From a virus, in the IMG/VR virus record IMGVR_UViG_3300033153_009093, positions 96,001 through 160,000 of that record: a DNA stretch of 64,000 nucleotides. One strand, written 5' to 3'. Below, one piece after another: positions 1 through 64,000 of this stretch. Position 1 is the stretch's first letter. Each line of letters begins with the position of its first letter. The translations under genes and the position numbers were made by a program. The notes beneath the pieces are model-generated. The model saw nothing but the letters and a program-made list of their open reading frames with translations. It was not told the DNA's origin and made no database searches.

Positions 1-1
1 T

Positions 2-664
2 TTTATCTATTTCAGTAATATTATTTTCTAAAAAAGAAGGTGTGTCAATATTATATTTATCTATTTTCAATATATGAGTATCATTATTATATAAATTATA
101 ATTATCAATGTCAGTATATTGTTCATCGAAGTGTCTTTCAATTGATAATAATGATAATGGTAAAATTTCATTACCAAATTTTTCATAATATATTGAATCA
201 TTATAATCTGATGTATTATAATATTTGTATTCATTTAATGTATATACAGTATCGTAATATAAATCTAACTATATAGGATTGAACCCCGGTGGGTTTCCGT
301 TTATATAATTAGAACCTTTCATTAATTGTTGTCCAAATATATAAATACCGCTGATAAAGGGTTTATCTATTCCGTAATTGTCCCCATATAATATATTATA
401 TTCGAACTGTTTTAAAAATACCGTTAAATATTTTTCATATTTTGGCGACTAATAAAATATGGCAGTATATTTATTTTCTTTATCATTTGCAATATTATTA
501 CAAATGAATTGAACTTTATCATTAATTAGTCCATAATAAAAATTATTATCCATTAATGTATTGCTAGTTAAAAATAACTGTTTAATATATTTATCTAAAT
601 ATAAACTTTCATAGTTAGTCAAATAATTATAATAAATATCTTCCAATTTGTAAAAACTTTCCAT
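2..664 (-). CDS. Hypothetical (probable virion) protein, partial, runs off the left edge; 2 in-frame TAG
   Basis: ORF-track 449..664 continues in frame through TAG 449-451 and 269-271 with no TAA/TGA to the window edge. Confidence 0.7.
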
Positions 665-744
665 AATGAAACCAATTATATTATATTGTTTTTTGAAATT
701 AATTATACAATTACAATATTAAATATTTTTTATGGTATCAAAAT

Positions 745-3700
745 ATGCTTTTTAAAACTAATTTATATAATAGAAATTATTACCCTATAAAGATTTTTTC
801 TATTAATGAAAATATTCTCAATGATGATAAATCTACTATTTCAAATGATTAGATTATAACCAGTTCTACTTTCAATAATGATGAAGGAAAATTAATTAAA
901 CCTTTTCAAACCACATCATAGATAACATCTGTGTCATTAAATGAAAATGTAAATAATTTTAAAGGATATATATATTTAGATTCTACTATATACACAGATT
1001 CTATTGATTATGGTACATTTGGAATATTATCAGGTTAGGAAGCAAATATAAAACATCACTTTGTTACTTTAAAAACTGGTAAGATTTTCAATAATAAAAC
1101 AGGGGGTGTATTTACAAAAGATGACGCTGATAGTTTATCGGAAGAATCTAATATCTCTTTAAAATTTAGTATGAAAGATATATCAGATTAGAATGAGATA
1201 TTAAATCATTTAGAAATGTCAGGATTTAGTGGATATGATATAGAAGATTATGATTTTTTTGGAGATGGAATAAATTCATTAACTATCAACTCTCCGCCTG
1301 ATGACAACTGCACTAATCAATTTGTTAGAGGAAGTGTAATAAATGATTAGGACACATTAACTGAATTTATTGAAAATAATAATGGCACATTGAAATTATA
1401 TAAAGAAAATGACAATATATAGTTTGACATGGAGCTACCCGGAAGATTATTATCTGATATATTTACTTCACTAGATACAAGTTATAAAAACATGATAACT
1501 TCAGAAGATTATGAAAAAAGTTCTAACTCTTCTATTGATTTGCCTATGTTACAATGGTCTATAGGCATGACAGTTATTTTGCAGTTAAAAAATAAAAATA
1601 ATAATACTCCTTATAAAATAAATTTAAAAATTGTTACGCCTTTAATATTCCTTTTATTATTACCTGAAAATGATATAATTGAAGCAAATAAAAGTGATAT
1701 TAAACCATTGCTTAATTTAATTAATAATCCTTCTGATCTTGATAAAAATACATTATTAGTTATACCAACAAAAACAAAATTATTAACTAATCCTTCCAGT
1801 TATTATTCATCTAATATAAAAGTATCACCCTTATCATTAAATACTTTATCGTTTGATACTAATGTAAATAAAGATACTTTTTTTACTATTAATAATGTTC
1901 AATAGAAAGCATCAGATTATTATACTGATAATGACTTAATAACTTTTTCGTCCGAATCGTTTCCGATAAAAAGAATTATACCATCCAGTGCAAATAAATT
2001 GATAAATAATAATTTTGACATATTTATAGATACTACTGGAATAACAGAAAGTTATATCAATACTCTAATTATTAATTATTCTTATGATGGTACAACTTAT
2101 GATATTGAAACTGATATTGAAATAATTCCTACTCTAAATGAAAATGAACCAGAAATAATATATTTACCAAATTCTATACTTGTTGAAAATTCTCATAAAC
2201 ATAAAGTAATACAAAAAGATTTATATAGTAGCAAATTTATTGACTGTATTCATTTTTCAACATTAGGAGAGGATAAACTTAATTTTCAATTAAAAAATAT
2301 AGGCGAAGCGAATGCGATAATTGAAAATGTCGAAATAGAAAATGCCTATAAATAGTTAGACGATTTAGCTAATATAGAAAATAAAACATCTAAGGATTTA
2401 GAAAATATCGAATTACTTACAGAATGTACTAATCATCACATTAGTGCTATGAAATATGTGAATAATTCTTTAACTGATATAGAATTAGAAAATTTAATTG
2501 AAAGATCTTCTATTAAAAAATATATAAATTTTACATTATCAAACATTAATCAATCTTCATATAATGCATATGGGACATCTAATTTTAAAATATTTTTTAA
2601 TATAAATAGATTTAAAACGGATATAAATTATTTAAATGGTATACCTTTAATATTTAAAATAATTTATAGAAAAAAAGATTCACCAATTAAATATACTAAA
2701 TATATATTCAATAAATCTGCTTTTAATTTAAAATTTGTAGTCGGTAAAATGGAATTATTGTATAATAATGAAGTGGAAGATATAAAATATATTAGACCTT
2801 CATCAAGAAATACTTTATTTGTTGATTTATATAGAAATATTAAATTTGACAATATTTAGAATTCTATGAGTAAATTATTATCGACCGGAGTTTCTATAAA
2901 AGATTGTAAAATATTAAATATAAATAATATTAATAATATATCGACTAATGAATATTTTATAGATCGTTCACAATTTCCATTAAGTGTATCTTCATTAAAT
3001 AATATAAATATTAATACGTTATCATTTGATTTAAATTTACAGAATGAAAAATTTTATAAATTTAAATTAAGAATATATACATCTTATGAATATATTCCTT
3101 TCATTGATATCCCTTTAAATGTAATAGCAACAAATGTGGATGTTGAAAGTATAATAAAATTTGATTCTAATGATTTTTATGTAAAAAATAATAAATATTT
3201 TTTATCATTAATAAAATTACAAACAAAAAATAGAAAATTATCTATAGTTAATACTTCTAATATAGATATTATGATATTAGATATAGACATTTACACCATT
3301 TCTGATCATTTTGGAAATGATAATTTTGATATTACATTAAATAATAGTTTTAATTTTCCGTTCAAAATGACTAATAAGAATTCTTTAAAATTAGATATTG
3401 ATTTTATTGGTAAAGATTTTGGACACTATAACAACTTTATAATATTAAAAACAAATTTAGGAGATATATATTTAAGCATTTCTTCTTTCGTAAATACAAA
3501 GTATAAAGATGTATATGTATTAATGGAAAATAGAAAGGGTACAAAATTTACATCAACATTAACTGGCAGTGATGTAGATTATATTAAGTTAATAAACTTC
3601 GGAGATGATAAATGTTTTACTGAAATAACTAAATTAGGAGGATAGAATTTAAATAATTTTAAAATATCCGAAAATGCAAAACTATTACCGAATACTACCA

Positions 3701-4620
3701 ATTATATAGAAAATGTATTTACTCCTACATCAACGGGTAAAAAAATAAGTTAGGCTGATTTTAAATTAAATGATATGCTAGAAACTTATAAATTATTAAT
3801 AGACGAAGAGACTTACATAGCTAAATTACAAAATAGTCATATAATTGCTGAAATGATAGGAACCGCATTAAGTGAAACGGCAGTGCCAGTATTTAGTAAA
3901 AGTATTATAGATTTTGGATATATCTCTACTGATAATAAAAATAGATTAACTAGAGTAGATACCTTTGATATTGAAAATTATGGAATAACTCCTTTTTTAA
4001 TAACAAAGATATCAAATGTAAATTCTAAATCTCCTTTTAAAATATCTTTACTAAATGAAAGTTATCCTATAAAGGTAAATAAGAAAATATCAATTCCAAT
4101 ATATATTGATAATACTTTATTAGATGACAATAATAAAATATATTATGATATATTTAAATTTGAATTGCAAGATTTAAAAACAAAAAATGTTTTTAGTAAT
4201 GATATTATTGTTAAATTAGAACTTACTGAAGATGATAAAAAATATATATCATTAAATTCAGAACTAATAGAATTTGGATATTGTGAAATAAATAATTTTA
4301 AATCTGATTCCGTATCCATTAAAAATTTTTCAACAGATAAGTTATCATTAGATATATCTTATAGTGGCGATATAGAATTACAAACATTGAAAGAATTCGC
4401 TATCAATTTATAGCCTAATCAAACCTTCGATTTGCCTATTTATTTCTATCCTCATGGAATTGATAATTTTGAAGGTATAATACAATTAAAATTTGATGAC
4501 GATTATATTAAAAATATAAACCTTTTTGGGTATGGTGTAGATTTTCAGTTACCTTTGATAAAAATCGAAAATGAATTATTAAAGTATACTAACAATATTC
4601 AACAATATTTAAATAAATAA
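745..4620 (+). CDS. Large (1291 aa) probable virion protein with ASH/Ig-like beta-sandwich domains in the C-terminal half; 12 in-frame TAG
   Basis: Track ORFs 1429, 1999, 2449, 2866, 3775 and 4432 are all in one frame, separated only by TAG (850, 919, 1036, 1189, 1348, 1420, 1903, 2353, 2857, 3643, 3751, 4411). ATG at 745, TAA at 4618. The C-terminus FGYCEINN..SIKN..L*PNQTFDLPIYFYP..G.IQL...L.GYG resembles ASH/choice-of-anchor-D domains. Confidence 0.8.
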
Positions 4621-4664: not shown

Positions 4665-5061
4665 ATAATCCAAATTCCTATAATATTTTATATAAGTTCA
4701 AAGGTTTCTTAACAGGGTAGTATACATTATCAAAATATACCACTAAACTAGAAATGTTATTCAATATTTGCTCAGACACTTCATCATACTTAACATATAC
4801 CATTAATGAATATTCTGTTCCTAATTTAGTATCATTTTCTTGCACAAATAACTTATTATAAGTATATATACATTTCATGCTATCTATATGAATATAGTCG
4901 TCCTGTGATATTGTAGTCATATCAACTGCGCTGTCATCAAAGGGGTTATTGACATTATTATAATTTGGCAAACATAAATCGCACATCGGATTATCAATCA
5001 TATTTGCTATTAAGTCAAACGCTTTTGATTGTATTGCCACTTTTAATTTCGAATATTCCAT
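4663..5061 (-). CDS. Hypothetical protein (1 in-frame TAG near the C-terminus)
   Basis: Track ORF 4678..5061 ends in TAG; read-through adds *EFGL then TAA at 4663-4665, next to the terminator. Confidence 0.65.
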
Positions 5062-7664
5062 TATTCCACCATAACAACATCGTCTAAGGTAACATTAAAT
5101 ATATAATCACTGTTATATGATATATATGAATATTTTAAATTAATATCATATTCATATATATGATTATACTTTCTATAATTTATTAACATTTGGACATAAC
5201 CTTCAGATGATATTTGATAAATTGTTGAGTCGCTTAATAAATCTTTATTTAATATAACAGGATTATTATTATTAGTATTAAATGATAATTCATTTACAGA
5301 TAGATTAATAAATTTATTATCATCAATATTATATAAAGTAATTAAATCATTATAATTATTTATCGAATTTATAAAATAATCAGAAAATGTATAATCATTT
5401 TCATCTGAATATAAACTATAATATGCATACTAATCTATTCCTATTACTTTATTAAATATAATAAATTTATTATCTGTATCCATGATATCATCATATTTAA
5501 AAAATGTTACAAGAAATGTTCCGGTCGTATCTGTTATATTTACTTTGTAAATATCTTCCCCTATTAATACTGACATCACATCTTCATATTCCGCAACATC
5601 TGTATTATCCATATCATAAGATTTAATAATATTAACGTCTGTTAAAATAAAATCTTGTAAATTTTCATAATTAGTTGTATCTATAGTTAAAATATCTTTA
5701 ACATAAGAAAAGGTATAATCGATTACTATAGGATCTTTATATATTTCAGTTAACTGTAATTGTTTTATTTCATTATATAAATGATAAATCAAATCATAAT
5801 TCAATTTATCATTTATATAATATTTATTAGATAATAGATAATAGTAATCAAATGAAATTGTTTGAATATAATCGAAATATAAAAATTTATACTTATAAAA
5901 GCTTTCATCCAATACCGTATTATTTCTAATAAAATGATTATCTAAAATATCTAATGCATCATTTTCATTATCAATCGCTATAATAGATAGCATATTATGA
6001 GGTAATATATTTATATCATCATTTATTAGTATAACATTATCTATTCCATTAGTATGTATATAATAAGATAATGAGTATTCTTCGCTTTTTATAAAGTCGT
6101 TATAGATTACATTTGCAGTATCAAATGTTTTATTAAATTTATACAAGTTATCAAAATCCTAAGATAAATTATATATATAATTATGCAATTTATTATAGTC
6201 CTACTATTCATCCATATAATCATTTACTACAAAATCAATTTCATAATGATCTACATCCAAAGAATATGAGTAATATAATTCATCATTATTTATAGGTATC
6301 AGTCCACCTATAGCAACTTTATATTGTCGTAAATAAAATGTTTCGTAGTTTATATTATCAGACACATATAAAACTATCGGCAAATTTGTAGTAGTGTCAA
6401 ATCCTTGGATATCTATAAATTCCGCTGTCTCTATACTTCCAATATTTGAATCTACAAAATCACCATGAATATCCTAAAATTCTATTTGCTTTGTTAAATA
6501 ATTTCTATACTTTTTAATACTATTATAGCTACTTATAAATTCATCATAATCTTCATCTAATATAACTGTAGAATCATTATTGTAAGCTGTTTTTATATAG
6601 TTATATAAATAATTATTATATGATTTAAATTCTATATTGACTATCTCTTCTTGTTTATATAACTTTAATTGATTTGATGTTATCGAATTACTTGGTACCT
6701 AATCTGATAAAGTGCTTTCCTCAATATCATTAAATGTAAATTTTAAATCCTATCTAACAAATGGATGCGGATAATTATCCACATATTCACTATGTCCATT
6801 TTCTGTTACTTTTATACTATAAGGATATTTATCTGCGCTAGTTACAATATATGAATATTGCTCAAAACTAAATATTGCCGATGGAATGTAACTTTTAACA
6901 TCATTTAAAATATCATATAATGTATTTTTTAATTTATAATTATCTTGGCTTCCGTAAATATATACATACTTTTCATATCCATTAAAATTTATTTTAAAAG
7001 TAAATCCATTATAGATAACTTTATATGGTAAATAATTTGAATATATATATAATTCTTTGTATGATAACGAATTTTGCAATTGTTCAAATTCCGATTCATT
7101 TAATCCTTCAGTTTTTATTAATACTAAATCAGGATATTCTATATTTGATTTAGGATAATATACTGTTGTAGGTGTCTCTATTTTCTTTTCAACTATATTA
7201 AATAAATAATCATCAATGGGATCTATTTCTATTCTATTATACGAAATAGATTTTATCGATGATAAGTAACCGGAGTCCTTTTCATTCTTTATAATATTAT
7301 CTACAAATATACCCTTAGTATCAATATCATTTGAATAGGTCTAAATAAATTTTATATTATTAGGATACTTTATAGATGTTATTATAAATATTTCACAAGC
7401 ATTGAATTTTGATAATATCATCTAATGAATAAGCTATAATTTTTCTACATTAGATAAATTGGCATCAATTTTTACATCATCAATTTTATCATATAGCCCA
7501 TATACATATTTTATTATTGTTGAGCTTTTATTTTCTGAATACTTATGATATAGATATGTTGAAAAAATATAATCCATTTTTTCATTAACGGCATATTGTT
7601 GCATACCTATCGTATCGCTGAATATGTATTCTATATTTAGATTATTAGAATTAAATCCTAACAT
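5061..7664 (-). CDS. Large (867 aa) probable virion/baseplate-region protein; 10 in-frame TAG including a TAG-TAG pair
   Basis: Track ORFs 7434..7664, 6750..7079 and 5430..6146 share one frame with only TAG between them. The final TAA overlaps the next ATG (TAATG at 5061-5063). Confidence 0.8.
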
Positions 7665-8292: not shown

Positions 8293-8802
8293 TTAAATAT
8301 TTGTAACATTAGAAAAATTCGTTAATAGATTATCTTGATCTTTTGTATCATTTAAATATTCAAAAAAATTATCTAATTCAATATATCTATTAACTGAAAC
8401 CAAATAATTTAAATCTAATGATAGCATATTAGGAATGATATAGTTTGTATCATCAAATTTTTTTATCTACACTGCTATTAATGTTTTAGTGGATGAAGGT
8501 TCATTCTATTTATAAGCACTATCGGTATTGATAGTAATATTATTAATAGGTTTATAATTTAAATTGTACTCTTCTATATTTAATGATTCTGATAAATTAG
8601 TAACTATTTGATTAAATATATATACATTATTATTTTCAATAAAATTTGAAATATTTATTTCATTAATAATTAAATCATTCTATAAAGTATTAATATATGC
8701 CAAATCTTTTTCTTCGGTATATCTAATGATATATAAATCAAATAACATAAACATCTAAGTAGATAAGCATAATTTAAAATTATCATTCGTGTACTATTTC
8801 AT
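8293..8802 (-). CDS. Hypothetical protein (169 aa) missed by the ORF track; 5 in-frame TAG
   Basis: Manual translation MK*YTNDNFKLCLST*MFML...TL*NDL...YK*NEP...AV*IKKF..., closing on TAA 8293-8295. Confidence 0.7.
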
Positions 8803-8806
8803 AATA

Positions 8807-10069
8807 TTACCCATTCACTAACATTACAGGGATTGTTAAAGTTTCACCTGATTTAGCTATATCAAAAATTAAATCATTAAAATAATTAGCATTGCTACTT
8901 AAAAATGAAAGATTATATAAATTATCTATATTTTTTAATGTACTCTATGGAATATTCTTCCTATCTTGTAATATTCTTCCTATTGAATTTGTTTCAATTG
9001 CTATCGGCATAGAATTTTTAAATCCATCAGAATATTCTTTATATTTCTTTATCTAATAATATCTGGATGAATATTTCGTTTCAATTAGATTTTTAGGTTT
9101 AGCTCCATTATATAAATGAAACAATCCATCATGTTCTAATTGTATTTTATTAAAAATAATATCAAAAAACTTTTTAGTAAATTCAAAAGGTATATATCTA
9201 TAAATGCCATTATTTTTATTTAAAAAAATTCCAACAGTAAATAGTGACTGAACAATAAAATAATTATCATTCAAATTTTCAATATCTGATTTAATAGTTG
9301 TCTAATTAGAATTGTATATAGAATTTAAACTGATATCTATAATACCGCTACTTGTTATTGATGTTAAATATTTATTATTATAATATAATTTAATATTATC
9401 TACGTCATCAGTGGTAGTATAAATAAAAAAATGAACAGGATAATAAACACCATTTAAATAAAATAAATAAAAATTGCTATGGTAAACTTTATGAATATTT
9501 GATTTTATTATTATGGTAGGATTGAAAATTGTTCTGATGTTATCTTCATCATCGATATAATATTTTCCAACTAATTCTTTTATCGAATGAATATTCCCTG
9601 ATAATGTTATTAGTTTTTCTACATTTTCTATTTCATAAAAAGGATAATATTCATTAGAATGAATATTATCATTTTTTAATGTATTATATCGTTTATAATA
9701 ATTATCATTATTAATAATAGAATACTATTCATCTAAAGTTAAATTATCATTATATAATGATAATTTTATTGCTTCATTTGCAGCATCTATTGCAATATTA
9801 TCTGTTTGAGTAGCGGATTTTATAAATCGATCTTTATAAAAATTTTCCTAAGATTCTGATAAATCTCCTGTATAAGAAAATAAATCTATAGGATTTTTAT
9901 TATACATTACATTATACAATGGCATATCGGATTCAAGATATATTAAATTACCAGAATTGATATTTTGTAAATTGAATTTATAGCTCTATAATGTTGGATG
10001 ATTTGATACGGCTTTTATATTATAATTTGATAATATATGCTGCACTTTATCGTAAGAAGAATATAACAA
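8807..10069 (-). CDS. Hypothetical (probable virion) protein, about 420 aa; 6 in-frame TAG
   Basis: Open frame from TTG 10069 to TAA 8807 interrupted only by TAG; contains track ORF 9053..9274; start codon uncertain. Confidence 0.7.
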
Positions 10070-10091: not shown

Positions 10092-11402
10092 TTAAACATT
10101 TTCAAATATACAATCATCAAATTCGTTTTTTAGTATATTAATTTTAATTTTAATACTTTTAATAAATACATTATTGAAATATTTACTATTATCAATTAAA
10201 TCATATACAATGGCATCTTTTTTATTATCACTTTTTCGTACAATCCGCCCTATTGTTTGAATAAGAGATTTTCTTCCCATTATAGGAGTTGCCAATATTA
10301 ATCGATTTAAAGCGGCATAATCAAAGGCATGCGAAGCATATTTATAAGTTGCTACAATTACGTTATCATTTATTTTATCAATATCATTTTTTTCAGAAAA
10401 TAATTTAGCAGAAGTTATATTTTTTTCTTTTAAATAATCATACACAAAATTAAGTTGTTTTTTTGTTAAACAAATAATTATTATTTTATTATTTTGTTCT
10501 ATTTCTTTTTTTGTGATATTATAAATATTAGATATCCATTCTTTAGATTCATGTAATTTTGAATTATATATCGATCTTGCTTGAATAAAATTTCTATTCC
10601 ATAAATACGAAATCCTTTTACCGTACTTTTCACCTAACCCACTATCGAATTTTATAAACTTTACAGTAGGTTGATAATCATATGAGCCATAAGTAACTAA
10701 TATATCATCGAATATAGATTTAACTAAAATATTTTTTTCTTTATCAAGATAAGGCGTAGCAGATAATCCTATTACATTTTTAGTGTTGAATAACAATGAA
10801 GCTGATGCATATTTAGTACCCATCTTATGCGCCTCATCCCAAAATATTAGATCGATTCCTATTGATCTAAATAATGGATAAAATTCTTTTATATTATTTT
10901 TTACTTTTGAAGCTAATGTCTGAGGTGTTGTGATGATAACTTTTTTATTTTCGACATCAAAAATTTTTCCTTTTATTAATCCAATTTCAGAATCTGTAAT
11001 ATTTGTATGTCGTAAAAATTCTTCTCTCCATTGTTCGACAATTTTTTCAGTATCAATAAGAATTAATGTTTTTTTATTTAAATAATGTGCTAAATATATT
11101 GAACAAACAGTCTTACCAAATCCAGGCCTTGCGTGCAATATACCATTTATACATCCAGTAGTAGTATAAACATTCAATAAATTATCAATTATACTTATTT
11201 GTTCCTTTCTTAATTTAGAAACAAATTTATATTTTAATATTTCTTCAGCTTTAAATTTTTTATCACTATAAGTTAAAATATCTTTATTATGTGCATATTT
11301 TAATATATTTCTAGGAAGGTATATATAATCATCTGTAGAATGTAAAGTATAAGGTTCATACTTTTCAATAAACGGACTATCTTTATTCAATAAACAAAAC
11401 AT
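10092..11402 (-). CDS. uvsW: UvsW-like superfamily 2 DNA helicase
   Basis: PGFGKT Walker A, DEAH, LSATP and QTIGRIVR motifs. Confidence 0.8.
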   Translation of the reverse strand: MFCLLNKDSPFIEKYEPYTLHSTDDYIYLPRNILKYAHNKDILTYSDKKFKAEEILKYKFVSKLRKEQISIIDNLLNVYTTTGCINGILHARPGFGKTVCSIYLAHYLNKKTLILIDTEKIVEQWREEFLRHTNITDSEIGLIKGKIFDVENKKVIITTPQTLASKVKNNIKEFYPLFRSIGIDLIFWDEAHKMGTKYASASLLFNTKNVIGLSATPYLDKEKNILVKSIFDDILVTYGSYDYQPTVKFIKFDSGLGEKYGKRISYLWNRNFIQARSIYNSKLHESKEWISNIYNITKKEIEQNNKIIIICLTKKQLNFVYDYLKEKNITSAKLFSEKNDIDKINDNVIVATYKYASHAFDYAALNRLILATPIMGRKSLIQTIGRIVRKSDNKKDAIVYDLIDNSKYFNNVFIKSIKIKINILKNEFDDCIFENV

Positions 11403-11405
11403 AAA

Positions 11406-11609
11406 TTAATACAAACTCACAGTTAAATAAACAACTTTATTATTCTTATCTATTATTACAGCCTTATTTATTCCATCAATTATATTTGATGTTGTACTTT
11501 CGTAATTATCAATCGATAAACTTATATTATATGTCAAAAACTCTTCTCTTTCAATTTCATTATCCATTGCCGCCTCTGCTATCATTGACTAAATTTCCGC
11601 AATTTCCAT
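11406..11609 (-). CDS. Small hypothetical protein (67 aa); 1 in-frame TAG at codon 7
   Basis: MEIAEI*SMIAEAAMDNEIERE..., ends TAA 11406-11408; fills the gap between neighbouring genes. Confidence 0.6.
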
Positions 11610-11622
11610 ATTAACTAAACCT

Positions 11623-12666
11623 TTAATTATATAATTTTGATATACTATAATCAATAAACGTTGTTGAATCGTTAATATTAATTACATCATTAATAATTCT
11701 ACTTTTACTATATAATTCTAATGCTATATTTTTCAATTCTCTATTATATTTGTTCTTTAAATATATTATTAATTTATATAATCCTATAGAAAAACTAATA
11801 AAATCAAATTTTTTAATTGAGATTAAAAAATAACTATTTATAAAATTATAATCCGTCAATTTCATAGAATTTATTTCTTCAACAAAGAATGTATCAAATA
11901 TTTTGCCATTTATCATTTGATAATTAGTAAAATATTTAATTATTAAATTTTTTATAATATTATCAAATAGTAATATCGTAATATATTTCGCTTCTTCCAA
12001 TTTATTTAATTTTATTAATATATATGCCGCTATTAATATATTACTATAACTAAAATAATTAAAAGGGTATATTATTTGAATATCATTTAAATATTCTTTA
12101 AATTTTTTACTTTTATAATAAGAATAACTATTTAACATTATAGAAAATAATATTTCCGAATTATAATATATTTTTAAATCTTTTTTTAATTCAATAGTAA
12201 TATTTTTTAAATCTGTATCTATTTTTGTTATAAGGCTGTTTACATTTGAATCTTTTTTTAATTCACAACCTAACACCCTTTCATTTGTTTTTGTATATTT
12301 TATTTTTTTTGGGGTTTTATATTTCGATATCAAAATTTCATAAGGATAATAATATTTATTAAAATCAGGAATAATTGAATTTTCATCTTTTATCATTTCT
12401 GGGGCTGGTTTCCCTACAATAAACTTATTCTTATTATAAAAAATATTACAATTTTGCAAACTAACCTTTAATTTACTATCCCTTTTTAATAAAGTATCAA
12501 CATATATAAATTTATTTTTTCTTTTTAATAAATAAGAATTTATTTTTAAACTATCAAAGATTTTTTCTTTTATAATATTATAATCAATTTCTGATTCATC
12601 TAATAATTCTTTTAATAATAATGTTGTTACATAATTTATAACATAATCTTTATTTATTTTTTCCAT
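11623..12666 (-). CDS. Hypothetical protein
   Basis: Track ORF; start moved to ATG 12666 (MEKINK) because the upstream part overlaps the tRNA gene. Confidence 0.65.
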   Translation of the reverse strand: MEKINKDYVINYVTTLLLKELLDESEIDYNIIKEKIFDSLKINSYLLKRKNKFIYVDTLLKRDSKLKVSLQNCNIFYNKNKFIVGKPAPEMIKDENSIIPDFNKYYYPYEILISKYKTPKKIKYTKTNERVLGCELKKDSNVNSLITKIDTDLKNITIELKKDLKIYYNSEILFSIMLNSYSYYKSKKFKEYLNDIQIIYPFNYFSYSNILIAAYILIKLNKLEEAKYITILLFDNIIKNLIIKYFTNYQMINGKIFDTFFVEEINSMKLTDYNFINSYFLISIKKFDFISFSIGLYKLIIYLKNKYNRELKNIALELYSKSRIINDVININDSTTFIDYSISKLYN

Positions 12667-12713
12667 ATAAATTCTTATTATTATATTGTAAATAATTGAT
12701 ATTAATAAAGAAA

Positions 12714-12787
12714 TGGACTCGGTTAAGAGAATCGAACTCCTATACACAGATTTAGAGTCTGTTATCTTGCCATTAGATCAAACCGAG
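12714..12787 (-). tRNA. tRNA with anticodon CUA (reads UAG); inferred tRNA-Trp(CUA)
   Basis: CTCGGTT TG ATCT AATGGCA AGAT A ACAGA CT-CTA-AA TCTGT GTAT AGGAG TTCGATT CTCTT AACCGAG T CCA. All four stems pair, with a GG D-loop, TTCGA T-loop and encoded CCA. The amino-acid identity is inferred. Confidence 0.95.
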
Positions 12788-12839
12788 TTTTATCTAACAT
12801 ATTTAATTAATCTATATCATTTTTTATTTTAATATACAA

Positions 12840-13379
12840 TTATGCATATTGCCAAGTTAATTTTAATTTTTTGTCACTAGGATGTTTCCCGGCAGATTCT
12901 CTTTTTCCTCTACAACATTCGGAAATGTGTTGATGTCTTGTATTTGCATGATTACCAGCTTTTCTTAATGAAAGAAACATAGAATTTAATTCAGGACAAT
13001 AGACTTTTTTTCTAGGTTTATTATGTAATCCATTTTCAAAAGCATGATCGCTATTTTCTTGATTAGTCATCCATTCCAAATCTTTCCAATAGTTATTTAA
13101 CTTATTACCATACTTATGATTTACTTGTGGTTTATTTTTAAAATTATCAACGAAATGAATAGCAACTAATCTATGAATAACATACGACTTCCCTTTTCCA
13201 TTATTACTAAACCATACATTAGCATATTTATTTCTAAAAGATGTTTTTAAAATAACACCTTCGGGGTATCTATGAAAACTTTTAACATTTCCCCATGATG
13301 ATATTTGATACAACCCTTCGTATCCTTTTACATCCTTCCACGTTTCAGACTCTCTATTTTTTATTTTTGTATCTGGCAT
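12840..13379 (-). CDS. NUMOD4-HNH homing endonuclease
   Basis: ETWKDVKGYEGLYQISSWGNVKS (NUMOD4), HRLVAIHF, VNHKYGNKLNN (HNH-like, with the usual HKDG Asp changed to Tyr). Confidence 0.85.
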   Translation of the reverse strand: MPDTKIKNRESETWKDVKGYEGLYQISSWGNVKSFHRYPEGVILKTSFRNKYANVWFSNNGKGKSYVIHRLVAIHFVDNFKNKPQVNHKYGNKLNNYWKDLEWMTNQENSDHAFENGLHNKPRKKVYCPELNSMFLSLRKAGNHANTRHQHISECCRGKRESAGKHPSDKKLKLTWQYA

Positions 13380-13411
13380 AATTATAGTATTATTTTAATT
13401 AAATTATTTAT

Positions 13412-14929
13412 TTAAAATAGCGAAACATTTTGTGATACTTGATTATTAGATTTTGTTTTCTTTTCAAATTGACCTAACATTCCGCCCCCTTCTTCGGCAC
13501 TACACTTTTCAAATCTTGCAAAATTAGGACGATATCTACAATTTATTATAGTACCATCTTCATGATATCTATGTTTTTCATTATATAATACGACCATATT
13601 ATATCCTAAATCTTTATAAGTATCTTTTACCTGCATTGTAATAACGATATCGGCATTTTCATATTTTGACCAACCGCCTCCAATGTCCGTACCACTTGGC
13701 ATTTCGTCATCGCTTTTACTTTTTCTTGCGCCTTCTCTATTAAACTGCGATACAGTTAACCCGCAAGTGTCATATTTTTTTGAAACAGCTTTGAAATCAT
13801 CTACAATATTCCCTACAACTTCATCACTTCTCAATGTTTTTCTATTATCAATAGGTAACATTTTATCTACATAGTCAAGCATAATAGAATATACAATAGA
13901 ATCTTTAAACTTTAATAGAGTTCTATCAATGCATGCTTCTATAGCTAACATATTATGACGTTTAGGTGGCAATTCAACTACGACTAATATAGTATTTTTA
14001 TCCTTTTGTTTTAAATATAATTTTATGATTTCTTTTCTTTTCTGATCATCCAATATATCATACTTTAATTTATTAATATCTATATCAGTTATATTTGAGA
14101 TAATCCGTAAAAAAGTTTCTGTTTTAGAATTTTCAAAAGTAAAATAGAAAACAATATTTTTTTTATTACCAGTTTTTTTAGACCGTAAGTGTTCTGCCGT
14201 TGAATGGCACAGAAACATTGATTTCCCGGCCCCGGAAGCCCCGATTAATATACCTATTCGTTTCTTCTCTATAAATCGAATTTCGCTTAATATTGAAACT
14301 TCTCGACACTCTTCTTGAACTACAGCCGATTCTTGTAAAGCTTCATCAATATCATCGATATCATTTTCTAAAACAAAATCGTCATTTATTAAAGAATCAT
14401 CATATGTCAAAAATATTTTTGATAATCTTTGTTCGTATTCTATTGTTGGGTCTTCTATTGTATAAAATTTATTATATAAATCATATAAATCAATAATAGA
14501 TTTATGAAGAGATAAAAATTTAATAACTTTATCAAATTCTATATTTATTGAACTATTATTAAATCTATTTGAATCTTTATTATTAACAATGTAATTTATA
14601 AATTTTTGTACTTTATTAAATGTATTATTATCTATTGTGTTTTCTATTTTATTTATAATACTTTGTTTTATAGAAACAATATCAGCATTTATACTTATTG
14701 TTTTTGATTCTATAATTAAAGATAATATTTTTATGAAGGCAGGATTATCCGTTTCATATACTAATGATAGTGATTTATAGGACTGTTGTTTTGTAGTAAA
14801 AAAATAATTTAAGAAACTATTTATATTTAATAATGATGCGTCTTTAAAATTAGTAATGTCATATCTTAATAAACCTATACATAATAAAGATATATACTCA
14901 GGTGTTAAATATTTTTTATCTATAATCAT
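13412..14929 (-). CDS. Replicative DNA helicase (DnaB/T4 gp41-like)
   Basis: GASGAGKS Walker A, LDYVD Walker B, SQFNREG motif. Confidence 0.8.
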   Translation of the reverse strand: MIIDKKYLTPEYISLLCIGLLRYDITNFKDASLLNINSFLNYFFTTKQQSYKSLSLVYETDNPAFIKILSLIIESKTISINADIVSIKQSIINKIENTIDNNTFNKVQKFINYIVNNKDSNRFNNSSINIEFDKVIKFLSLHKSIIDLYDLYNKFYTIEDPTIEYEQRLSKIFLTYDDSLINDDFVLENDIDDIDEALQESAVVQEECREVSILSEIRFIEKKRIGILIGASGAGKSMFLCHSTAEHLRSKKTGNKKNIVFYFTFENSKTETFLRIISNITDIDINKLKYDILDDQKRKEIIKLYLKQKDKNTILVVVELPPKRHNMLAIEACIDRTLLKFKDSIVYSIMLDYVDKMLPIDNRKTLRSDEVVGNIVDDFKAVSKKYDTCGLTVSQFNREGARKSKSDDEMPSGTDIGGGWSKYENADIVITMQVKDTYKDLGYNMVVLYNEKHRYHEDGTIINCRYRPNFARFEKCSAEEGGGMLGQFEKKTKSNNQVSQNVSLF

Positions 14930-14931
14930 TT

Positions 14932-15780
14932 TTATTTTAATAAAGGAGAGAATTTTGTCATTATGTTAGCTACAAATAAATATTTAATATTATTTGTAAT
15001 TAAATCTGTCGGATCTAAACTATTGCTTAATTTATCATGTTCATATCTAAAAAAATCTGTCGGATCAGCATATTCTACATAATCATATAAAATTTCATTT
15101 AATTCTTTTAAACTATTAATATTTCCTATTATAAAATTAACAACATAATTTAAAATTTTACGATACGCTGGAATATTTACCCAACCGCCTGTATATTTTA
15201 TATTGACTATTTTATTATCATTTAAATAATATACTCCATTTTTTTTATTTAATACAATGACATGGTCGTACTTTTTATACTTTGTTATCTTTAAAAATCT
15301 ATCACTCACATACATTTCGGCAGAAACATTAGTATCTAATGTAGAAAATTCAATATCATCATAATTCATTCTTTTTATTATCAATGATTTTGTTGACATT
15401 TTATGTAATTTAAAAAAATTCAAAAAAAATACATTTCTTATAGCTACCATATATCTATTTAGTTTTATATTATTACATAATAATCTTTTATAAAATAATC
15501 CAAACTCTACAACTCTTTTTTGTTTAGACATAGAATTACAAATTGAAATATATTCATCGATAATGTTACTTTTAATAATGTTATTACAAGCTATTAAAAA
15601 ATTTACATTAAATGAAATGATATCAATAGAGTTAATATCATTTAATACCGACTCTTCTTCATAGAAAAAATCAGAATTTTTAGGATATATATTATAATAT
15701 TTTTTTAATAAATTTAAACATGATATATTATTTATAAATTCTTTTGCGCTTGCCTCTCTAATATCATTTATTACGCTCAT
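14932..15780 (-). CDS. Hypothetical protein
   Basis: 282-aa ORF in the replication gene run; no motif recognised. Confidence 0.6.
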   Translation of the reverse strand: MSVINDIREASAKEFINNISCLNLLKKYYNIYPKNSDFFYEEESVLNDINSIDIISFNVNFLIACNNIIKSNIIDEYISICNSMSKQKRVVEFGLFYKRLLCNNIKLNRYMVAIRNVFFLNFFKLHKMSTKSLIIKRMNYDDIEFSTLDTNVSAEMYVSDRFLKITKYKKYDHVIVLNKKNGVYYLNDNKIVNIKYTGGWVNIPAYRKILNYVVNFIIGNINSLKELNEILYDYVEYADPTDFFRYEHDKLSNSLDPTDLITNNIKYLFVANIMTKFSPLLK

Positions 15781-16282
15781 AAGTTTTTATTATTTCAGTT
15801 ATAGGTAATAATTTATAATTATTATTATCGTAGCCTACGTCAATAGCTCTATCATTATATTTAATTTTTCCATGAGCATGTCCGTGTAAATGAATAGAAT
15901 TTTTATAATAATCAGGCTATTCGTATAACGGATAATGAAATAAATTAAATATATAATTATTATAATTTAATGTACAAATAGTATTATTTAAAATAATTAT
16001 TTTATTACTAATAGTTATATTATACTTTTTGAATTTATCATGATTACCAATCAATAAATAAATTTTTCCATTTAATTTATTCATTAGATTTATAGTATCT
16101 TTAACTTTCGCAGAACTAAAATCGCCAATATAATAAATTTCATCTGATACATTTATTTGATTGTTCTATTGAGAAATTAAAGATTTATTTACTGTTTTTA
16201 CATCTTTCCCTAATTGATATCTATTATTATGATATAAATAATTACTATCAAAGAAATGATGATCTGCGCTTACATATATCAT
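15764..16282 (-). CDS. Calcineurin-like metallophosphoesterase (172 aa) missed by the ORF track; 2 in-frame TAG at conserved Trp sites
   Basis: SADHHF, ISQ*NNQI..YYIGDF, LIGNHD, FHYPLYE*PDYY, HLHGHAHG, AIDVG. TAG at 16166-16168 and 15917-15919. Confidence 0.9.
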
Positions 16283-16286
16283 ACTG

Positions 16287-16502
16287 TTATTCCTTAGTAA
16301 ATATATAAATTCCATCCTTATATTTATCAGAAAACGAAAAAGGAAAATAACTTCTGCTAATTTTCCGATAAATATATGACGTGTAAAGTATTATAGATTG
16401 TTCAGGTCTTGGCATAACTTGTACAACTATCATAAAATTTTTATCTAAATTAGCAGGAAATCCATGTTCGTGTATACAATCTTCTAATTTTAAGTCTTTC
16501 AT
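16287..16502 (-). CDS. Small hypothetical protein
   Basis: Track ORF lying between neighbours on the same strand. Confidence 0.5.
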   Translation of the reverse strand: MKDLKLEDCIHEHGFPANLDKNFMIVVQVMPRPEQSIILYTSYIYRKISRSYFPFSFSDKYKDGIYIFTKE

Positions 16503-39023: not shown

Positions 39024-39044
39024 AAATTATTCCCTTTTAAAATA

Positions 39045-39092: not shown

Positions 39093-39133
39093 AATATAAG
39101 AAATAGAATTAATATTAACCAATAAAAAAATTT

Positions 39134-44880: not shown

Positions 44881-45519
44881 ATGAGCAATGATAATATAAC
44901 GATAATATTTGATAAAAAATTTTTATTTTATACAGATAAAATGTTTGGGGATTTAGATTTTTTTAATGATAAATTTTAGATGATATTTAAGTCTTTTTCT
45001 TTCATTAAAACAAATATAAATAGAAACTTTAAGTATAGTGATAAAATGGGAGTAATGTCACTGGCAAATAAAGTATTTAAAGAAGTATCAAGAGATTTAA
45101 AATTATTTAATAATTATATATATAATCCAGAAGATAATATACAGGTTAGTATATCGTATTTTAAATCTCTTTATGATGCTTTTAATATATATGATATTGA
45201 TTTCGTTAATAGAATTAAATTAATGATATTGGCATATGAATAGAATATTATTTCGGTAAATTCATTATTGAAATCTAATACTTATAAACATTATTTAAAT
45301 AAAGAACATGATATACTTGAAATAATAAAAAATAATACTACTGATAAAAATTTATTAGAACATATTCGGACAATAAATGAAGTAATGAAAATATATAAAG
45401 AATTGTCCGAATATAACTTAAAAGATGATATAGATAATTCGAGAACCATTTACCGAAATAATATTATTTCTATGGTAAAAGATTATAATGATAAATATCA
45501 AGAAGATATTATATTATAG
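44881..45519 (+). CDS. Hypothetical protein (212 aa); 2 in-frame TAG
   Basis: Joins track ORFs 44980..45243 and 45268..45519 through TAG 44977 and 45241. Confidence 0.65.
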
Positions 45520-45544
45520 AATATTGATAAATAAAAGGAAAATC

Positions 45545-46867: not shown

Positions 46868-47086
46868 ATGGTTAATATAACAGTTGAAAAAAAATCATAT
46901 GAATCATTATATGGAATGATAAGTAGATTTAATAAAAAGGTAGAGGATGAAGGTATTTTAAAAGATTATAAATTATCCCAAATGAGAAAACAAGATAGAC
47001 TGACTTTTAAAAAATTTACTGCGGAAAGAAGAAGAGAAAAGCAACAAAAAAGAATTCAGTTAGCTATGAATTCATCTCGATCATGA
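46868..47086 (+). CDS. rpsU: Ribosomal protein bS21 homolog
   Basis: ESLYGMISRFNKKVEDEGILKDYK...RRREK matches the S21 pattern 'LKRFKR.....G.L.E.K'. Confidence 0.7.
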   Translation: MVNITVEKKSYESLYGMISRFNKKVEDEGILKDYKLSQMRKQDRLTFKKFTAERRREKQQKRIQLAMNSSRS

Positions 47087-47994
47087 AAACTACATACAAA
47101 ATATCAAAGAATTTTTTAAAAAATAAAGATTATAAAATTTGTATATTTGATGTTAATTCTTTATTTTTATTTAATGGCAAAAATAGTATAAGGTTAATGT
47201 ACGATTTTATAGCTAATTTAAGAAAAACATTCCCTGACTTATTAATAATAAACGTAATAGATAATGGTATTAGTAATATTTTATTAAATAAATATCCATA
47301 TTATAAAGCGAACAGAAATCATTCAATAAAAAGTAATAATATTATTATTAATAAATTTGGAACAATAAATAGTTTTAAGGCAAAAATCGGCAGAATACAT
47401 AAGTTAGATGAATCATTCAATAAAAATTTAACGTTTTATTATCCAGGTGAAAGTGATTTTAAAATAGGATAGATTTTAAAATATATAAATAAATATACAT
47501 CGTTATCTAGCGATAATATATTGACGGTTTCATTAGATAAAGATTTTTTATTAACAACGATATTAAGTGATTTTTTATTAAAAAGAAGAATAAATAAGAA
47601 GACACATTATTGTTTGATAGACAGTAATGTTAATATTGAACAAGTGAAAAGTGTTTTTGGAATAGAAAAATTGAATATTAAAAATCCATATGATTATTTT
47701 TATTTCTTAATATTAAATGGCGATAGAATAGATAATATAAAAAAATTATTTACAAAAGGTCAATCGATAAAAATTTTGAATAATATATTAGATGATTTTG
47801 ACGATATTAATTTAAACTTATTATTAAAATATTCAAAAAAAATATCAAATGAGATTGATACGAAATCTATTTATGACAATGGTTATTTAGTCGATTTATT
47901 TAATGATGATATTTTTACAATAACGGAAAAAAATATAATGAAATGGATTATGAATTATTTTTTTCAAAACAATAATATAAATATTTTATTATGA
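47083..47994 (+). CDS. Second FEN/RNase H-like 5'-3' nuclease; 1 in-frame TAG
   Basis: FDVNS, VIDNG, YPYYKANR, ESDFKIG*I, SLDKDF, LNGDRIDNI. Joins track ORFs 47083 and 47521 via TAG 47470-47472. Confidence 0.75.
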
Positions 47995-48464: not shown

Positions 48465-50237
48465 ATGAAATTAAAAAGTAATAATATTAAATTAAATTTA
48501 GCAAATAGAAATAGTATAAAAAAAAATACATCAACTCCTAGTAAAAATTAGGATAGTATTACTGATAATCCTGCCATTAGAGATAAAATATTATCAAATA
48601 CTAAATATGATATTCTTAATGAATCAGGATCAGAAATTAATAACGCTGCAATGAAAGCGTTTACTGATATGGGAATAGCTGTCAGTGATGTAAATGTAAA
48701 TGATCCGTTATCTCATAAAAATGTTATTAAGAGAGTTAATTTATATTTAAAAAGATTTCCGGAAGTCGAATATATTGTAGATATGATAGCATCATCCGTG
48801 ATATATTCATCATCCAGTAATACTAAAAAAATACAATGTACGTTAAGAGGAGATTATAAAACGTTAAATGGTTCGGACAGCACAATATCAGACAGTACAG
48901 AAAATGTCGATATCAGTGTCGATATCAATGATATAAAAGTTAAAAAAATAGATTCATAGTATGATGATTTAAATTTACAAATTGGTAATTTATTTAAAAA
49001 GAATAATATTAAATTAGCTCTATATGATTTTATAAAGTCTATAGTAAATTATGGATGTAGTATATTTTATATCAATGATACTGCAAAATACGAAGATGTT
49101 TCATTTTATAGTTTGGATGAATTAGATTTTTCATTTGAAAAAGATGAGGTTCATACTAATGCACTTTTGAATGAATTGAAAAGAGAAGATAGTAAAATAT
49201 TTGAAATATCAGAATTAAATAATGAAATTAAAAAGTTTAATTCAAATATAGTAACTGCAAAATTAAAAGAAGACGATACAGAGTTGGATATATCAAAAAT
49301 GTATTTTATTTCCGAAAAAGGTATTTTTGGAAAATCTAAGGTAATGAAAATAATTCATTATTTAAAGACTGTTGAGTTATTGGAGCTATCTTTACTTATT
49401 GAAAGATTATCAAAAACGAAAACTACACATGTATAGAAACTGGATTTAGATAAAGTTGAAGAAGAAGATTTATCTTCAACATTATTATTATATAGAAATT
49501 TATTAAAATCAAAGGTAGCACTGAATTACGATGAAGAAAATGATAATATGCAATTTGATTTTGTAAAAAATCTAGTTGATAATAATATTTTGGTACCTAC
49601 AGAAAATGATAACTTAACAATTGATACATTAAAATCTGATTTTAAGCCATTATTAGATGATGTAAGTTATTATTAGGATAAAATATATTTATCAATGGGA
49701 CTACCTTCGTATTACAGAAACTCCGATTCAAAGACGTATACAAACAATAATATGTTAATAATGCATGATAATGTATATTCTATGAAAATTAGACATTATC
49801 AACTTATAATAAATAATTTATTAACATTTTAGATTGAGAATTGGTTAAAAGTTAATTTTTCAAAAATATCAGTTAAATACTTAAATATAAATATACCAGA
49901 ATTTATTCCTTTAAGTGAGCGGAAAGAAACAGATATCGATAAATCTGGAAAATTTATCAATATGTTTTCGCAATTAGAAAGTACTTTAGGTGTAAAATTA
50001 AAAAGAGAATTTGTATTAAATAAATTATTTCCTAATGATATTATATCCGATATGGTAGAAGTGGAAGAAATGGATATTAAAAATGATATAGATTCTAATG
50101 AAAATAAAAAAGATGAAATAATGTCAATGTTTGAAGAAGGTGAAAACAAAAAAGAAAGCCTAAAGTTTTTTAGTATCACTAAACAAGATAATATAGATAT
50201 TATTAGGTATGATTTAAATTTAAGTATAAATTGGTGA
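48465..50237 (+). CDS. Portal protein (T4 gp20-like, 590 aa); 5 in-frame TAG
   Basis: PEVEYIVDMIASSVI, LKTVELLELSLLIERLS...V*KLDL, DDVSYY*DKIYLSMGLP follow gp20 motifs. TAG at 48549, 48957, 49434, 49674 and 49830. Confidence 0.7.
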
Positions 50238-63335: not shown

Positions 63336-63394
63336 TTTTTAATATACATGGATTCAATTTATTAGTCAAATAAATAAGATACGTGAGCATTTAA

Positions 63395-63844
63395 ATGAAA
63401 GTGATTAAAGGTGATTTAATTAAGTTAGCGAAAGAAAGGAAATTTGATGTCATAACGCACGGCTCGAACTGTTATAATTGTATGGGTGCCGGAATTGCTA
63501 AACAAATTAAACAAGAATTTCCTGAAGCATATAAAGCTGATTTGAAAACAAAAAAAGGCGATAGATTAAAATTAGGTTCATATTCAGAAGCTTATGTTAA
63601 AAAATATAATTTAATAATTATTAATGCGTATACTCAATATGGTTATTGGGGAAAAGGCGGAAAACCGAACGCGGATTATATGGCAATTGAAAAAGTATTT
63701 AAAAAAATAAAAGAAAATTATAATGCTAAACAGATTGGCATTCCTTTGATTGGTACTGGATTAGCAGGCGGTGATTGGAATAAAATTTCTAATATTATTG
63801 ATAGTATGAATTTTAATAATATAACATTAGTTGAATATGAATAA
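63395..63844 (+). CDS. Macrodomain protein (ADP-ribose binding/hydrolase)
   Basis: GDL, NC..MGAGIA, NAYTQ, PLIGTGLAGG.W. Confidence 0.88.
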   Translation: MKVIKGDLIKLAKERKFDVITHGSNCYNCMGAGIAKQIKQEFPEAYKADLKTKKGDRLKLGSYSEAYVKKYNLIIINAYTQYGYWGKGGKPNADYMAIEKVFKKIKENYNAKQIGIPLIGTGLAGGDWNKISNIIDSMNFNNITLVEYE

Positions 63845-63879
63845 AGAATCTGAAATCTAAAATATATAAAATAAAAGCT

Positions 63880-64000
63880 ATGAGTTATGATATAGATTTA
63901 AATTGTCCGGTTACAAATAAAGTAATAGGATTTGAGTTTAAACACGATATAAAAGGTGGCACATATGCTATAGGTGGCAGCGATGAAGCTTCATTGAATA
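63880..64000 (+). CDS. Phage hypothetical protein, partial at the right edge
   Basis: MSYDIDLNCP...GGTYAIGG...A.LN. Confidence 0.5.
   Translation, partial: MSYDIDLNCPVTNKVIGFEFKHDIKGGTYAIGGSDEASLN

Follow-up and report, generated by a model that had tools for sequence, protein, structure and literature searches.

Tryptophan as the probable meaning of UAG in the late genes of an AT-rich, distantly T4-like phage with a tRNA(CUA) and a predicted tryptophanyl-tRNA synthetase of its own

The phage genome and its in-frame TAG codons

The subject of this analysis is a 64,000-nucleotide stretch of viral DNA, hereafter the window, which comprises bases 96,001-160,000 of a single contig of 180,374 bp (IMG/VR record IMGVR_UViG_3300033153_009093, rated complete by CheckV) and in whose late genes the codon UAG is probably read as tryptophan (Trp). 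The genome has a GC content of 24% and is phage-like, being distantly related to T4, as it carries genes of the large terminase, a Gp23-type capsid protein, rIIA, rIIB, ribonucleotide reductase, a DnaB-type helicase and giant structural proteins. Two features of the window are central: a 74-nt tRNA with the anticodon CUA (12714..12787, minus strand; detected by ARAGORN and scoring 59.4 bits with the Rfam tRNA model), which is the only tRNA of the 180-kb genome, one tmRNA also being present, and the gene of a predicted divergent tryptophanyl-tRNA synthetase (TrpRS) of 316 amino acids (38073..39023, minus strand; Pfam PF00579). Positions refer to the window unless genome coordinates are indicated.

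With TAG read through and TAA and TGA taken as stops, 216 genes were called, covering 92% of the genome; they contain 303 in-frame TAG and 289 TGG codons among 55,484 codons and end with TAA (177 genes) or TGA (39 genes). The window holds 79-81 in-frame TAGs across 26-27 genes, each of which ends with TAA or TGA, in agreement with the sequence-only reading, which had counted about 80 TAGs in about 27 genes and had seen no need for TAG as a stop. The longest open frame of the window extends over 1291 codons with 12 TAGs and not a single TAA or TGA, TAA alone constituting about 5% of out-of-frame triplets. The TAG sites are evenly distributed along the genes and do not pile up at the 3' ends; where a TAG lies near the terminus of a window gene (4663-5061 and 7664-8281), the orthologues continue through it with sense codons. 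Beyond the window, two small genes that also contain TGG (genome 168279-168719 and 174113-174307) have a TAG located 3-4 codons before the end, and these near-terminal TAGs could be true stops.

Recoding of TGA or TAA was rejected, as it is read-through of TAG alone that lifts the total length of open reading frames of at least 100 amino acids in six frames from 0.78 to 0.98 of the genome length. Pseudogenes and assembly errors were rejected as well, since TAA and TGA never break the frames and relatives from independent metagenomes have TAG or TGG at the same positions. In this genome TAG occurs in frame as a sense codon.

The distribution of TAG and TGG is strongly uneven. The 69 TAG-bearing genes contain 303 TAG versus 47 TGG (0.17% of codons) and the TAG-free genes 242 TGG (0.86% of codons); among the TAG genes of the window there are 13 TGG versus 79 TAG, so that the earlier remark that TAG-rich genes are nearly devoid of TGG applies to the window and to the genome alike. 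Taken together, TAG and TGG account for 1.07% of all codons and 1.28% of those in TAG genes, which is a normal level for Trp, and the frequency of glutamine (Gln) is similar in the TAG and TAG-free gene sets (2.1% and 2.3%). Two complete relatives from IMG/VR, G001 (276 kb) and G002 (233 kb), show this pattern too, TAG and TGG together making up 1.0-1.3% of their codons; they were located by scanning with aligned TrpRS family sequences and were analysed in full; a search of IMG/VR for terminase relatives by exact peptide words found none, although the TrpRS scan did find these two.

In the TAG-bearing (late) genes the TAG/(TAG+TGG) ratio is 0.87, which is also the proportion of A-ending codons at ordinary twofold A/G sites of the genome (CAA 0.84, AAA 0.87, GAA 0.91, TTA 0.88), and hence TAG and TGG behave as synonymous codons under AT pressure. 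This fits an origin of the TAGs by TGG-to-TAG transitions in an AT-biased genome, as had been supposed from the sequence. In G001 and G002, which are less AT-rich, the ratio is 0.67-0.69.

The TAG-bearing functions include the terminase, capsid-region, giant structural and SLT genes, and no TAG was found in 28,173 codons of the replication, nucleotide-metabolism and TrpRS genes. Thus, the features by which stop-codon-recoded phages are recognized, i.e., in-frame TAGs, a matching tRNA(CUA) and confinement of TAG away from early and replication genes, are all present in this genome.

The amino acid at TAG positions

The residues facing TAG were collected from 211 orthologue alignments across the three genomes (the phage, G001 and G002), in which 135 TAG-TAG pairs occur. 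Opposite the remaining TAGs, tyrosine (Y) was found 120 times, W 114 times and F 43 times, followed by N (23), I (22), L (19) and further residues down to Q (3 of 464), and this partner profile is almost identical to that of TGG. When substitution tables estimated from the same 211 alignments were used to calculate the likelihood of each reading of TAG, W was the best one, with Y at -189 nats and Q at -740 nats. For the window genes only, the codons opposite TAG are TAG (39), TGG (18), TAT/TAC (13), TTT/TTC (6) and CAA (1), so that CAA/CAG occupies 1 of 92 positions. In comparison with three related-phage loci, TAG faces TAG 35 times, TGG 24 times, Phe/Tyr codons 12 times and CAA/CAG never (0 of 71). 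Within-genome paralogues gave mostly spurious low-complexity matches with 20-25% identity, and only three genuine pairs were used.

The DUF5662 gene (27991..28443, minus strand) has 5 TAG and no TGG. Its family was searched with a query submitted conservatively with Q at the TAGs, and among 150 diverse representatives four of the TAG columns are occupied by W in 79%, 80%, 92% and 85% of sequences, with Y at no more than 3%; the fifth is an L/W/I/F column, and no Q was observed. The four columns are four of the five Trp-dominant columns of the family; the sequence-only reading, which had placed the TAGs at all five conserved Trp sites, was therefore right for four of them and overstated for the fifth. 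The Pfam score of the protein is 114.1 bits with W at the TAG sites, 98.9 with Y, 93.1 with X and 91.6 with Q.

A similar picture emerges from the terminase, which has 9 TAG and no TGG. The search gave 13 proteins with 45-78% identity and a mixture of Q and W at the TAG columns. The Q residues are an artefact, since the DNA of the stored proteins has TAG that was translated by table 15: proteins P0001 and P0002 were reproduced from their DNA only with TAG = Q. The relative P0006, translated by table 11, has W at 7 of 9 TAG sites and Y at 2, and of seven distant homologues six or all seven have W at three of the TAG sites, with F/Y at two more, so that three of the nine TAGs fall in columns wholly or nearly all W in standard-code homologues. 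The N-terminal domain of the terminase scores 23.1 bits in Pfam with W, 21.9 with Y and 19.7 with Q. As a side observation, public collections keep the close terminase relatives (P0001-P0005; loci L008 and L010) as TAG = Gln, with conserved Trp shown as Gln, which is a systematic mis-annotation of the clade by gene callers limited to tables 4, 11 and 15.

Gln, which code 15 would require, does not dominate the columns opposite TAG; Trp does, with TAG and TGG interchangeable, as in a code of the NCBI table 32 type. Judged by this comparative record, TAG behaves as the evolutionary equivalent of Trp. Six independent lines of sequence evidence (composition, close relatives, complete relatives, distant homologues, Pfam scores and mutational equilibrium) support the reading of UAG as Trp. 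Every test that was run among those proposed with the sequence-only reading favours Trp over Gln, as that reading had it, and in the homologue columns W and other aromatics dominate with almost no Q. Its description of the code as new is acceptable in part: no phage report was found in the limited literature searched, but the code is not new to biology, as Balanophora plastids use UAG = Trp.

The synthetase, the tRNA and the release factor

The synthetase gene contains neither TAG nor TGG, and the enzyme could therefore be made without any Trp decoding. Its sequence displays the motifs HIGH, YPVLQTFDVL, DQ and KMSKS and a C-terminal C-x22-C-x4-C-x2-C. Fourteen relatives with 39-68% identity were found on phage-sized contigs of up to 276 kb, where the gene order is ClpP, FEN, small gene, TrpRS, GT9, rIIA, rIIB, dUTPase; invariant across the 15 family members are HIGH, YP[VI]LQ.FD, DQ, KMSKS and the four C-terminal cysteines. 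The profile of the family matches Thermotoga maritima TrpRS (2g36) with an E value of 3.5e-24 and 88.8 bits over nearly the full length with the cysteine motifs aligned, and all thirteen best matches of the profile are TrpRS, the best tyrosyl-tRNA synthetase (TyrRS) reaching 28.3 bits. The AF2 (AlphaFold) model of the enzyme (pLDDT 86) has TrpRS structures for all of its 50 best fold matches. Two of the relatives score higher with NCBIfam trpS than with tyrS. By sequence and modelled fold, the synthetase is assigned to class Ic TrpRS of the four-cysteine Thermotoga type, having the Rossmann-fold catalytic domain, the HIGH and KMSKS motifs and the Trp-pocket motif YP.LQ..D of this class, and appears closer to TrpRS than to TyrRS. 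The T. maritima enzyme binds a 4Fe-4S cluster via the aligned cysteines.

The TrpRS gene lies in a TAG-free block (28454..40540) which includes the ribonucleotide reductase large subunit, DNMK, dUTPase, rIIB, rIIA-like, GT9, TrpRS, a small gene and FEN, these labels being Pfam labels from syntenic relatives. TrpRS and tRNA(CUA) co-occur in three of three complete genomes.

The tRNA(CUA) folds into a regular cloverleaf with the anticodon loop CUCUAAA, a variable loop of 4 nt and a CCA end encoded in the gene. Unusually, its acceptor end has the pair C1:G72 and the discriminator U73. In the counterparts from G001 and G002 the stems differ throughout by compensated changes, and C1:G72, U73, the anticodon loop and CCA are kept in all three. 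The tRNA of G001 (C1:112953-113043) has 91 nt and a long variable arm with the stem GGG/CCC and the loop TTTAATTA, the other two having 74 and 76 nt; a mimic of the CCA (Trp) anticodon or a spare hairpin is absent from this arm, its loop being the one just given. No tRNA-Trp(CCA) was found in the phage, G001 or G002, although G001 has 22 tRNAs.

Bacterial TrpRS needs G73 on its tRNA. With respect to the marks of bacterial tRNA-Trp, i.e., G73 and a CCA anticodon, the molecule has U73 and CUA, and only the CU-NNN-AA loop is alike; hence it is filed as a Trp-inserting suppressor by its putative function and is not placed in the bacterial tRNA-Trp family. ARAGORN labels it tRNA-Pyl, which is the default for any CUA anticodon; the cloverleaf is ordinary, with a 7-nt D-loop containing GG and the T-loop TTCGATT, and the Trp-conserved columns argue against pyrrolysine. 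Matches of the tRNA in a BLAST search against annotated phages were confined to the anticodon arms of other suppressor tRNAs and are uninformative on its identity.

The tRNA is embedded in a second TAG-free block (10092..15780, minus strand) comprising an SNF2-type helicase, a 347-aa gene, the tRNA, an HNH/NUMOD4 endonuclease, the DnaB-type helicase and a 282-aa gene; an unvalidated small open reading frame inside it (11406-11654) holds one TAG. The order DnaB, tRNA, 347-aa gene, helicase is common to the phage, G001 and G002. In the two relatives genes of release factor 2 (RF2), with SPF and GGQ motifs and no TAG, are situated just upstream of the tRNA (G001:C1:111431-112543 and G002:C1:92519-93649; loci L097 and L096), giving the order DnaB, RF2, tRNA, 347-aa gene, helicase. 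In the present genome the RF2 slot between DnaB and the tRNA is filled by the HNH/NUMOD4 homing endonuclease (12840-13379).

The 347-aa gene directly downstream of the tRNA (11623-12666, minus strand) has no TAG and no TGG; G001 keeps it at this position with 35% identity, G002 has a weakly conserved counterpart there, and searches gave no Pfam family and no convincing fold match for it. A motif AATGATATA(G/T)A, resembling an extended -10 element, occurs 20-45 nt upstream of the tRNA in all three genomes (12790-12850, minus strand, in the window); its 9-mer has 35 occurrences in the phage genome, so that chance is possible.

Proposed mechanism and alternative explanations

We consider it likely that UAG means Trp, that the TrpRS of the phage loads the tRNA(CUA) of the phage, and that the late genes are gated thereby. 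Under this scheme, the early and middle genes (replication, nucleotide metabolism, TrpRS), in which there is no TAG and Trp is encoded by TGG, would be translatable by the unmodified host precisely because they are TAG-free. Loading of Trp on the tRNA(CUA) by the phage TrpRS appears to be the most likely mechanism and, as U73 and C1:G72 differ from G73 of the substrates of bacterial TrpRS, the enzyme and the tRNA may constitute a private pair. Once the pair accumulates, the late genes, that is, structural, packaging, lysis-type and resident mobile-element genes with 87% of their Trp codons as TAG, would become readable. The TAG-free genes would accordingly be translated first and the TAG genes later, a timing that we deduce from gene function only. 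AT-biased mutation would have moved TGG of the late genes to TAG up to the ordinary synonymous A/G level. The total lack of TAG in the 28,173 early-type codons argues that the host itself reads TAG as a stop. Gating by recoding was proposed for other codes by Borges et al. (bioRxiv 10.1101/2021.08.26.457843).

A broader statement is put forward with somewhat less assurance, though we still find it probable. An AT-rich clade of T4-like jumbo phages, with genomes of 160-276 kb, would read UAG as Trp by means of a self-contained orthogonal pair of FeS-type TrpRS and U73-C1:G72 tRNA, mostly accompanied by RF2, and would thereby gate its late genes and mobile elements; the code would be one undescribed for a virus or a free-living cell, which pipelines mistranslate as code 15.

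Several observations weigh against this interpretation. No convincing promoter motif was found to separate TAG genes from TAG-free genes. The RF2 of the relatives is not in this genome, in which no release-factor domain was found genome-wide. Tyr is the commonest single residue opposite TAG (120 versus 114 for W), although TGG behaves likewise. The window synthetase taken alone scores 40 bits with NCBIfam tyrS versus 32 with trpS, both far below the cut-off, and C1:G72 is a mark of archaeal tRNA-Tyr.

The explanation that survives best after the preferred one, although we regard it as unlikely, is that UAG is read as Trp via the phage tRNA(CUA) but that a host enzyme charges this tRNA, the phage TrpRS serving to boost Trp-tRNA or to replace a host TrpRS that has been shut down. 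According to Borges et al., synthetase genes are rare in phages with recoded stops, which probably use host enzymes (bioRxiv 10.1101/2021.08.26.457843). The 22 tRNAs of G001 would likewise indicate that the clade supplements translation generally. Charging by the host is at variance with the retention of U73 and C1:G72 in three otherwise diverged tRNAs, given the G73 requirement of bacterial TrpRS, with the absence from the three genomes of any tRNA-Trp(CCA) for the phage TrpRS to serve, and with the joint presence of TrpRS and tRNA(CUA) in all three.

Among other residues, Tyr is the only serious alternative: UAG would mean Tyr, or ambiguously several aromatics, through a class Ic synthetase drifted towards Tyr. 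TAT being the commonest single codon opposite TAG among the three phages, the marginally better tyrS score of the window enzyme and the archaeal flavour of C1:G72 would suit such a reading. It is nevertheless very improbable, considering that 25% of the residues facing TAG are W, versus about 1.5% expected for a Tyr codon, that the likelihood prefers W by 189 nats, that the DUF5662 columns are 79-92% W with Y at no more than 3%, that Pfam scores are higher with W than with Y, and that profile and fold searches with the synthetase return TrpRS throughout.

That the phage simply uses code 15, with UAG as Gln, we hold to be hardly credible. Reassignment of TAG to Gln is the sole amber reassignment reported in phages, Escherichia coli glutaminyl-tRNA synthetase (GlnRS) charges many phage tRNA(CUA), and public databases give Q at the TAG sites in the proteins of close relatives; the stored Q, however, is nothing but TAG translated by table 15, CAA/CAG is almost missing opposite TAG in all three comparisons given above (0/71, 3/464 and 1/92), late proteins would be left with 0.17% Trp, and Q yields the lowest Pfam scores.

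Editing of UAG to UGG in mRNA with no change of the code, through A-to-I conversion of the middle base such as hepatitis delta virus shows at its amber/W site, would equally make TAG evolutionarily equal to Trp, but it is just as implausible, because all three genomes retain a dedicated tRNA(CUA), which in two of them has RF2 next to it, some 300 sites would have to be edited, and no deaminase turned up, no search aimed at deaminases having been made.

Comparison with known recoded systems

In phages whose code differs from that of the host, Borges et al. (bioRxiv 10.1101/2021.08.26.457843) observed only TAG to Gln and TGA to Trp, and attributed the prevalence of these two assignments to the ease with which host GlnRS and TrpRS are co-opted. 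A 2025 screen of 213 phage suppressor tRNAs, with mass spectrometry in extract, identified UAG as Gln for 28 of 29 tRNA(CUA) and as Ala for one; the same screen revealed functional GlnRS and TyrRS pairs for UAG and Trp only at UGA. Within the limited body of literature searched, no report of UAG as Trp in a phage was found.

The closest phage systems are those of Jade phages, which have TrpRS, RF1 and tRNA(UCA) for TGA to Trp (bioRxiv 10.1101/2021.08.26.457843), and AP1, whose TrpRS:tRNA(UCA) is a recently reported phage-derived UGA pair (PMC12636597). As proposed here, a phage TrpRS and a suppressor tRNA put Trp at a stop codon in them, the genes of the kit are kept in the standard code, the recoded codon is concentrated in late/lysis genes, and a release factor takes care of the other stops (in our case RF2, in the relatives only). 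The differences are that the codon is UAG and not UGA, so that the synthetase would have to accept U35 instead of C35, that the tRNA has U73 and not G73/A73, that TrpRS is of the four-cysteine Thermotoga type, and that this genome has no release factor. With the code-15 phages (crAss-like, Lak and related gut phages) the phage shares late-gene TAG, a tRNA(CUA) and TAG-free early genes, and its relatives share RF2 with some of them (Lak, Agate). It differs in the inferred amino acid, Trp, in the almost complete replacement of late TGG by TAG instead of an addition to CAA/CAG, and in the dedicated synthetase.

Outside phages, TAG to Trp is established for the plastids of the parasitic plant Balanophora (NCBI table 32). 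The Balanophora/Thonningia plastids show the same reassignment, an extremely AT-rich genome, rare TGG and TAG unused as a stop, but these are organelle genomes (about 15-21 kb) that are recoded in full, with no early/late split, and no encoded pair of tRNA(CUA) and TrpRS is known there. The E. coli su+7 (supU) tRNA-Trp(CUA) is an amber suppressor with the same Trp-type loop CU-CUA-AA; it is largely mischarged with Gln by GlnRS, unlike the phage tRNA(CUA), for which the evolutionary record points to Trp and the acceptor end with C1:G72 and U73 is unlike that of bacterial tRNA-Trp. T. maritima TrpRS (2g36) is the best sequence and fold match, the C-x22-C-x(4-6)-C-x2-C of the phage family aligning with its cysteine motif, but the identity is about 19%, the subclade of this genome has x4 and not x6, and the phage enzyme presumably reads CUA and not CCA.

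If the proposed reading holds, a phage clade with TAG = Trp and its own synthetase breaks the two-assignment rule and indicates that phages can build codes which host enzymes would not provide; it is a variant of phage stop-codon recoding with another amino acid at UAG and with a synthetase and a tRNA of the phage's own. Gene callers with tables 4, 11 and 15 only would put Gln at about 1% of late-protein residues, exactly at the conserved Trp sites, which would impair gene annotation, predicted structures and the detection of homologues; the stored P0001-P0005 illustrate this. A natural TrpRS:tRNA(CUA) with an unusual discriminator is a candidate orthogonal pair for amber code expansion with Trp analogues, which would complement the phage-derived UGA pair (PMC12636597), and the near-equilibrium ratio of TAG to TGG would be a clean natural case of codon capture under AT pressure.

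Further TAG-bearing genes and neighbouring features

A 1291-aa structural gene with an Ig-like C-terminal domain (745..4620, plus strand) has 12 TAG and 1 TGG, and the codons of G001 and G002 opposite its TAGs are TAG, TGG, TAT, TTT and few others. In an 867-aa structural gene (5061..7664, minus strand; 10 TAG, no TGG) nine of ten facing codons in G001 are TAG or TGG. Two late genes of 173 aa and 372-420 aa (8293..10069, minus strand) have 5 and 5-6 TAG, respectively, and no TGG; a 241-aa gene (21110..21835, minus strand), for which no family was found, has 3 TAG and no TGG. On the plus strand, a 167-aa gene (41711..42214) with 3 TAG is opposed by GAA/TTT/TGG and GAG/TTT/TAG in its orthologues, and a 590-aa gene (48465..50237; 5 TAG, 2 TGG) by TGG at four of four aligned sites in G001. 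The ClpP-like protease (40549..41304, plus strand) has its single TAG within an N-terminal extension. The gene of the SLT lytic transglycosylase (44881..45534, plus strand; 3 TAG) is uninformative on the amino acid, because its TAG sites fall in unconserved Pfam columns. Two giant late genes, of 2092 aa (12 TAG; window 2-664 continuing to genome 90386, minus strand) and 2213 aa (5 TAG; genome 82074-88715, minus strand), gave no family match.

A 183-aa gene (15764..16315, minus strand; 2 TAG) was compared with its paralogue at 61516-62037: one TAG faces TGG, as had been noticed from the sequence, but the other faces CAT, and the label "phosphoesterase" given to the gene there has no Pfam support. 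The orthologues have TAG/TAG and TAG/TGG at the two sites. The second FEN-like gene (47083..47994, plus strand) has one TAG, opposite which TAT was found in the paralogous FEN at 39491-40540, as the sequence had suggested, with TGG in G001 and TAT in G002.

TAG = Trp codons were also observed in genes of mobile elements. The TnpB/Cas12f-like gene (26520..27851, plus strand; Pfam PF07282; 5 TAG, no TGG) has TAG at five of five sites in G001. In three homologues that use the standard code, the residues facing these five TAGs are Y/H/W, W/L/W, W/W/W, Y/Y/L and H. Genes of the DUF723 type include a DUF723/DUF4379 (Vsr-like) homing-endonuclease-type gene (20207..21103, minus strand; 4 TAG, 1 TGG), for which a paralogue in another part of the genome shows TGG at one TAG site, AAT at two and AAA at the fourth; of two nucleases previously described as DUF723-like, one matches the family and the other does not. 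Carrying TAG, the TnpB-like and DUF723-type elements would be adapted to the code of the phage. The nearest standard-code TnpB homologue (locus L095) is on a 30.7-kb contig of GCA_020718545.1 packed with DUF723 genes and containing one PDDEXK gene, and for this gene content the contig probably represents another phage of this kind.

Two observations outside the window concern RNA metabolism. The gene adjoining the terminase (genome 25022-26269, minus strand) has an orthologue in the relative L010 that belongs to Pfam PolyA_pol (PF01743), a family which includes CCA-adding enzymes; the phage tRNA(CUA) has its own encoded CCA. The tmRNA (genome 171981-172339, i.e., L007:11981-12339, minus strand) is full-length, scores 100.7 bits with Rfam RF00023 and, according to ARAGORN, encodes the tag ADDYAIAMAA closed by TGA; in a phage with rewired termination, such a ribosome-rescue RNA may be linked to the recoding.

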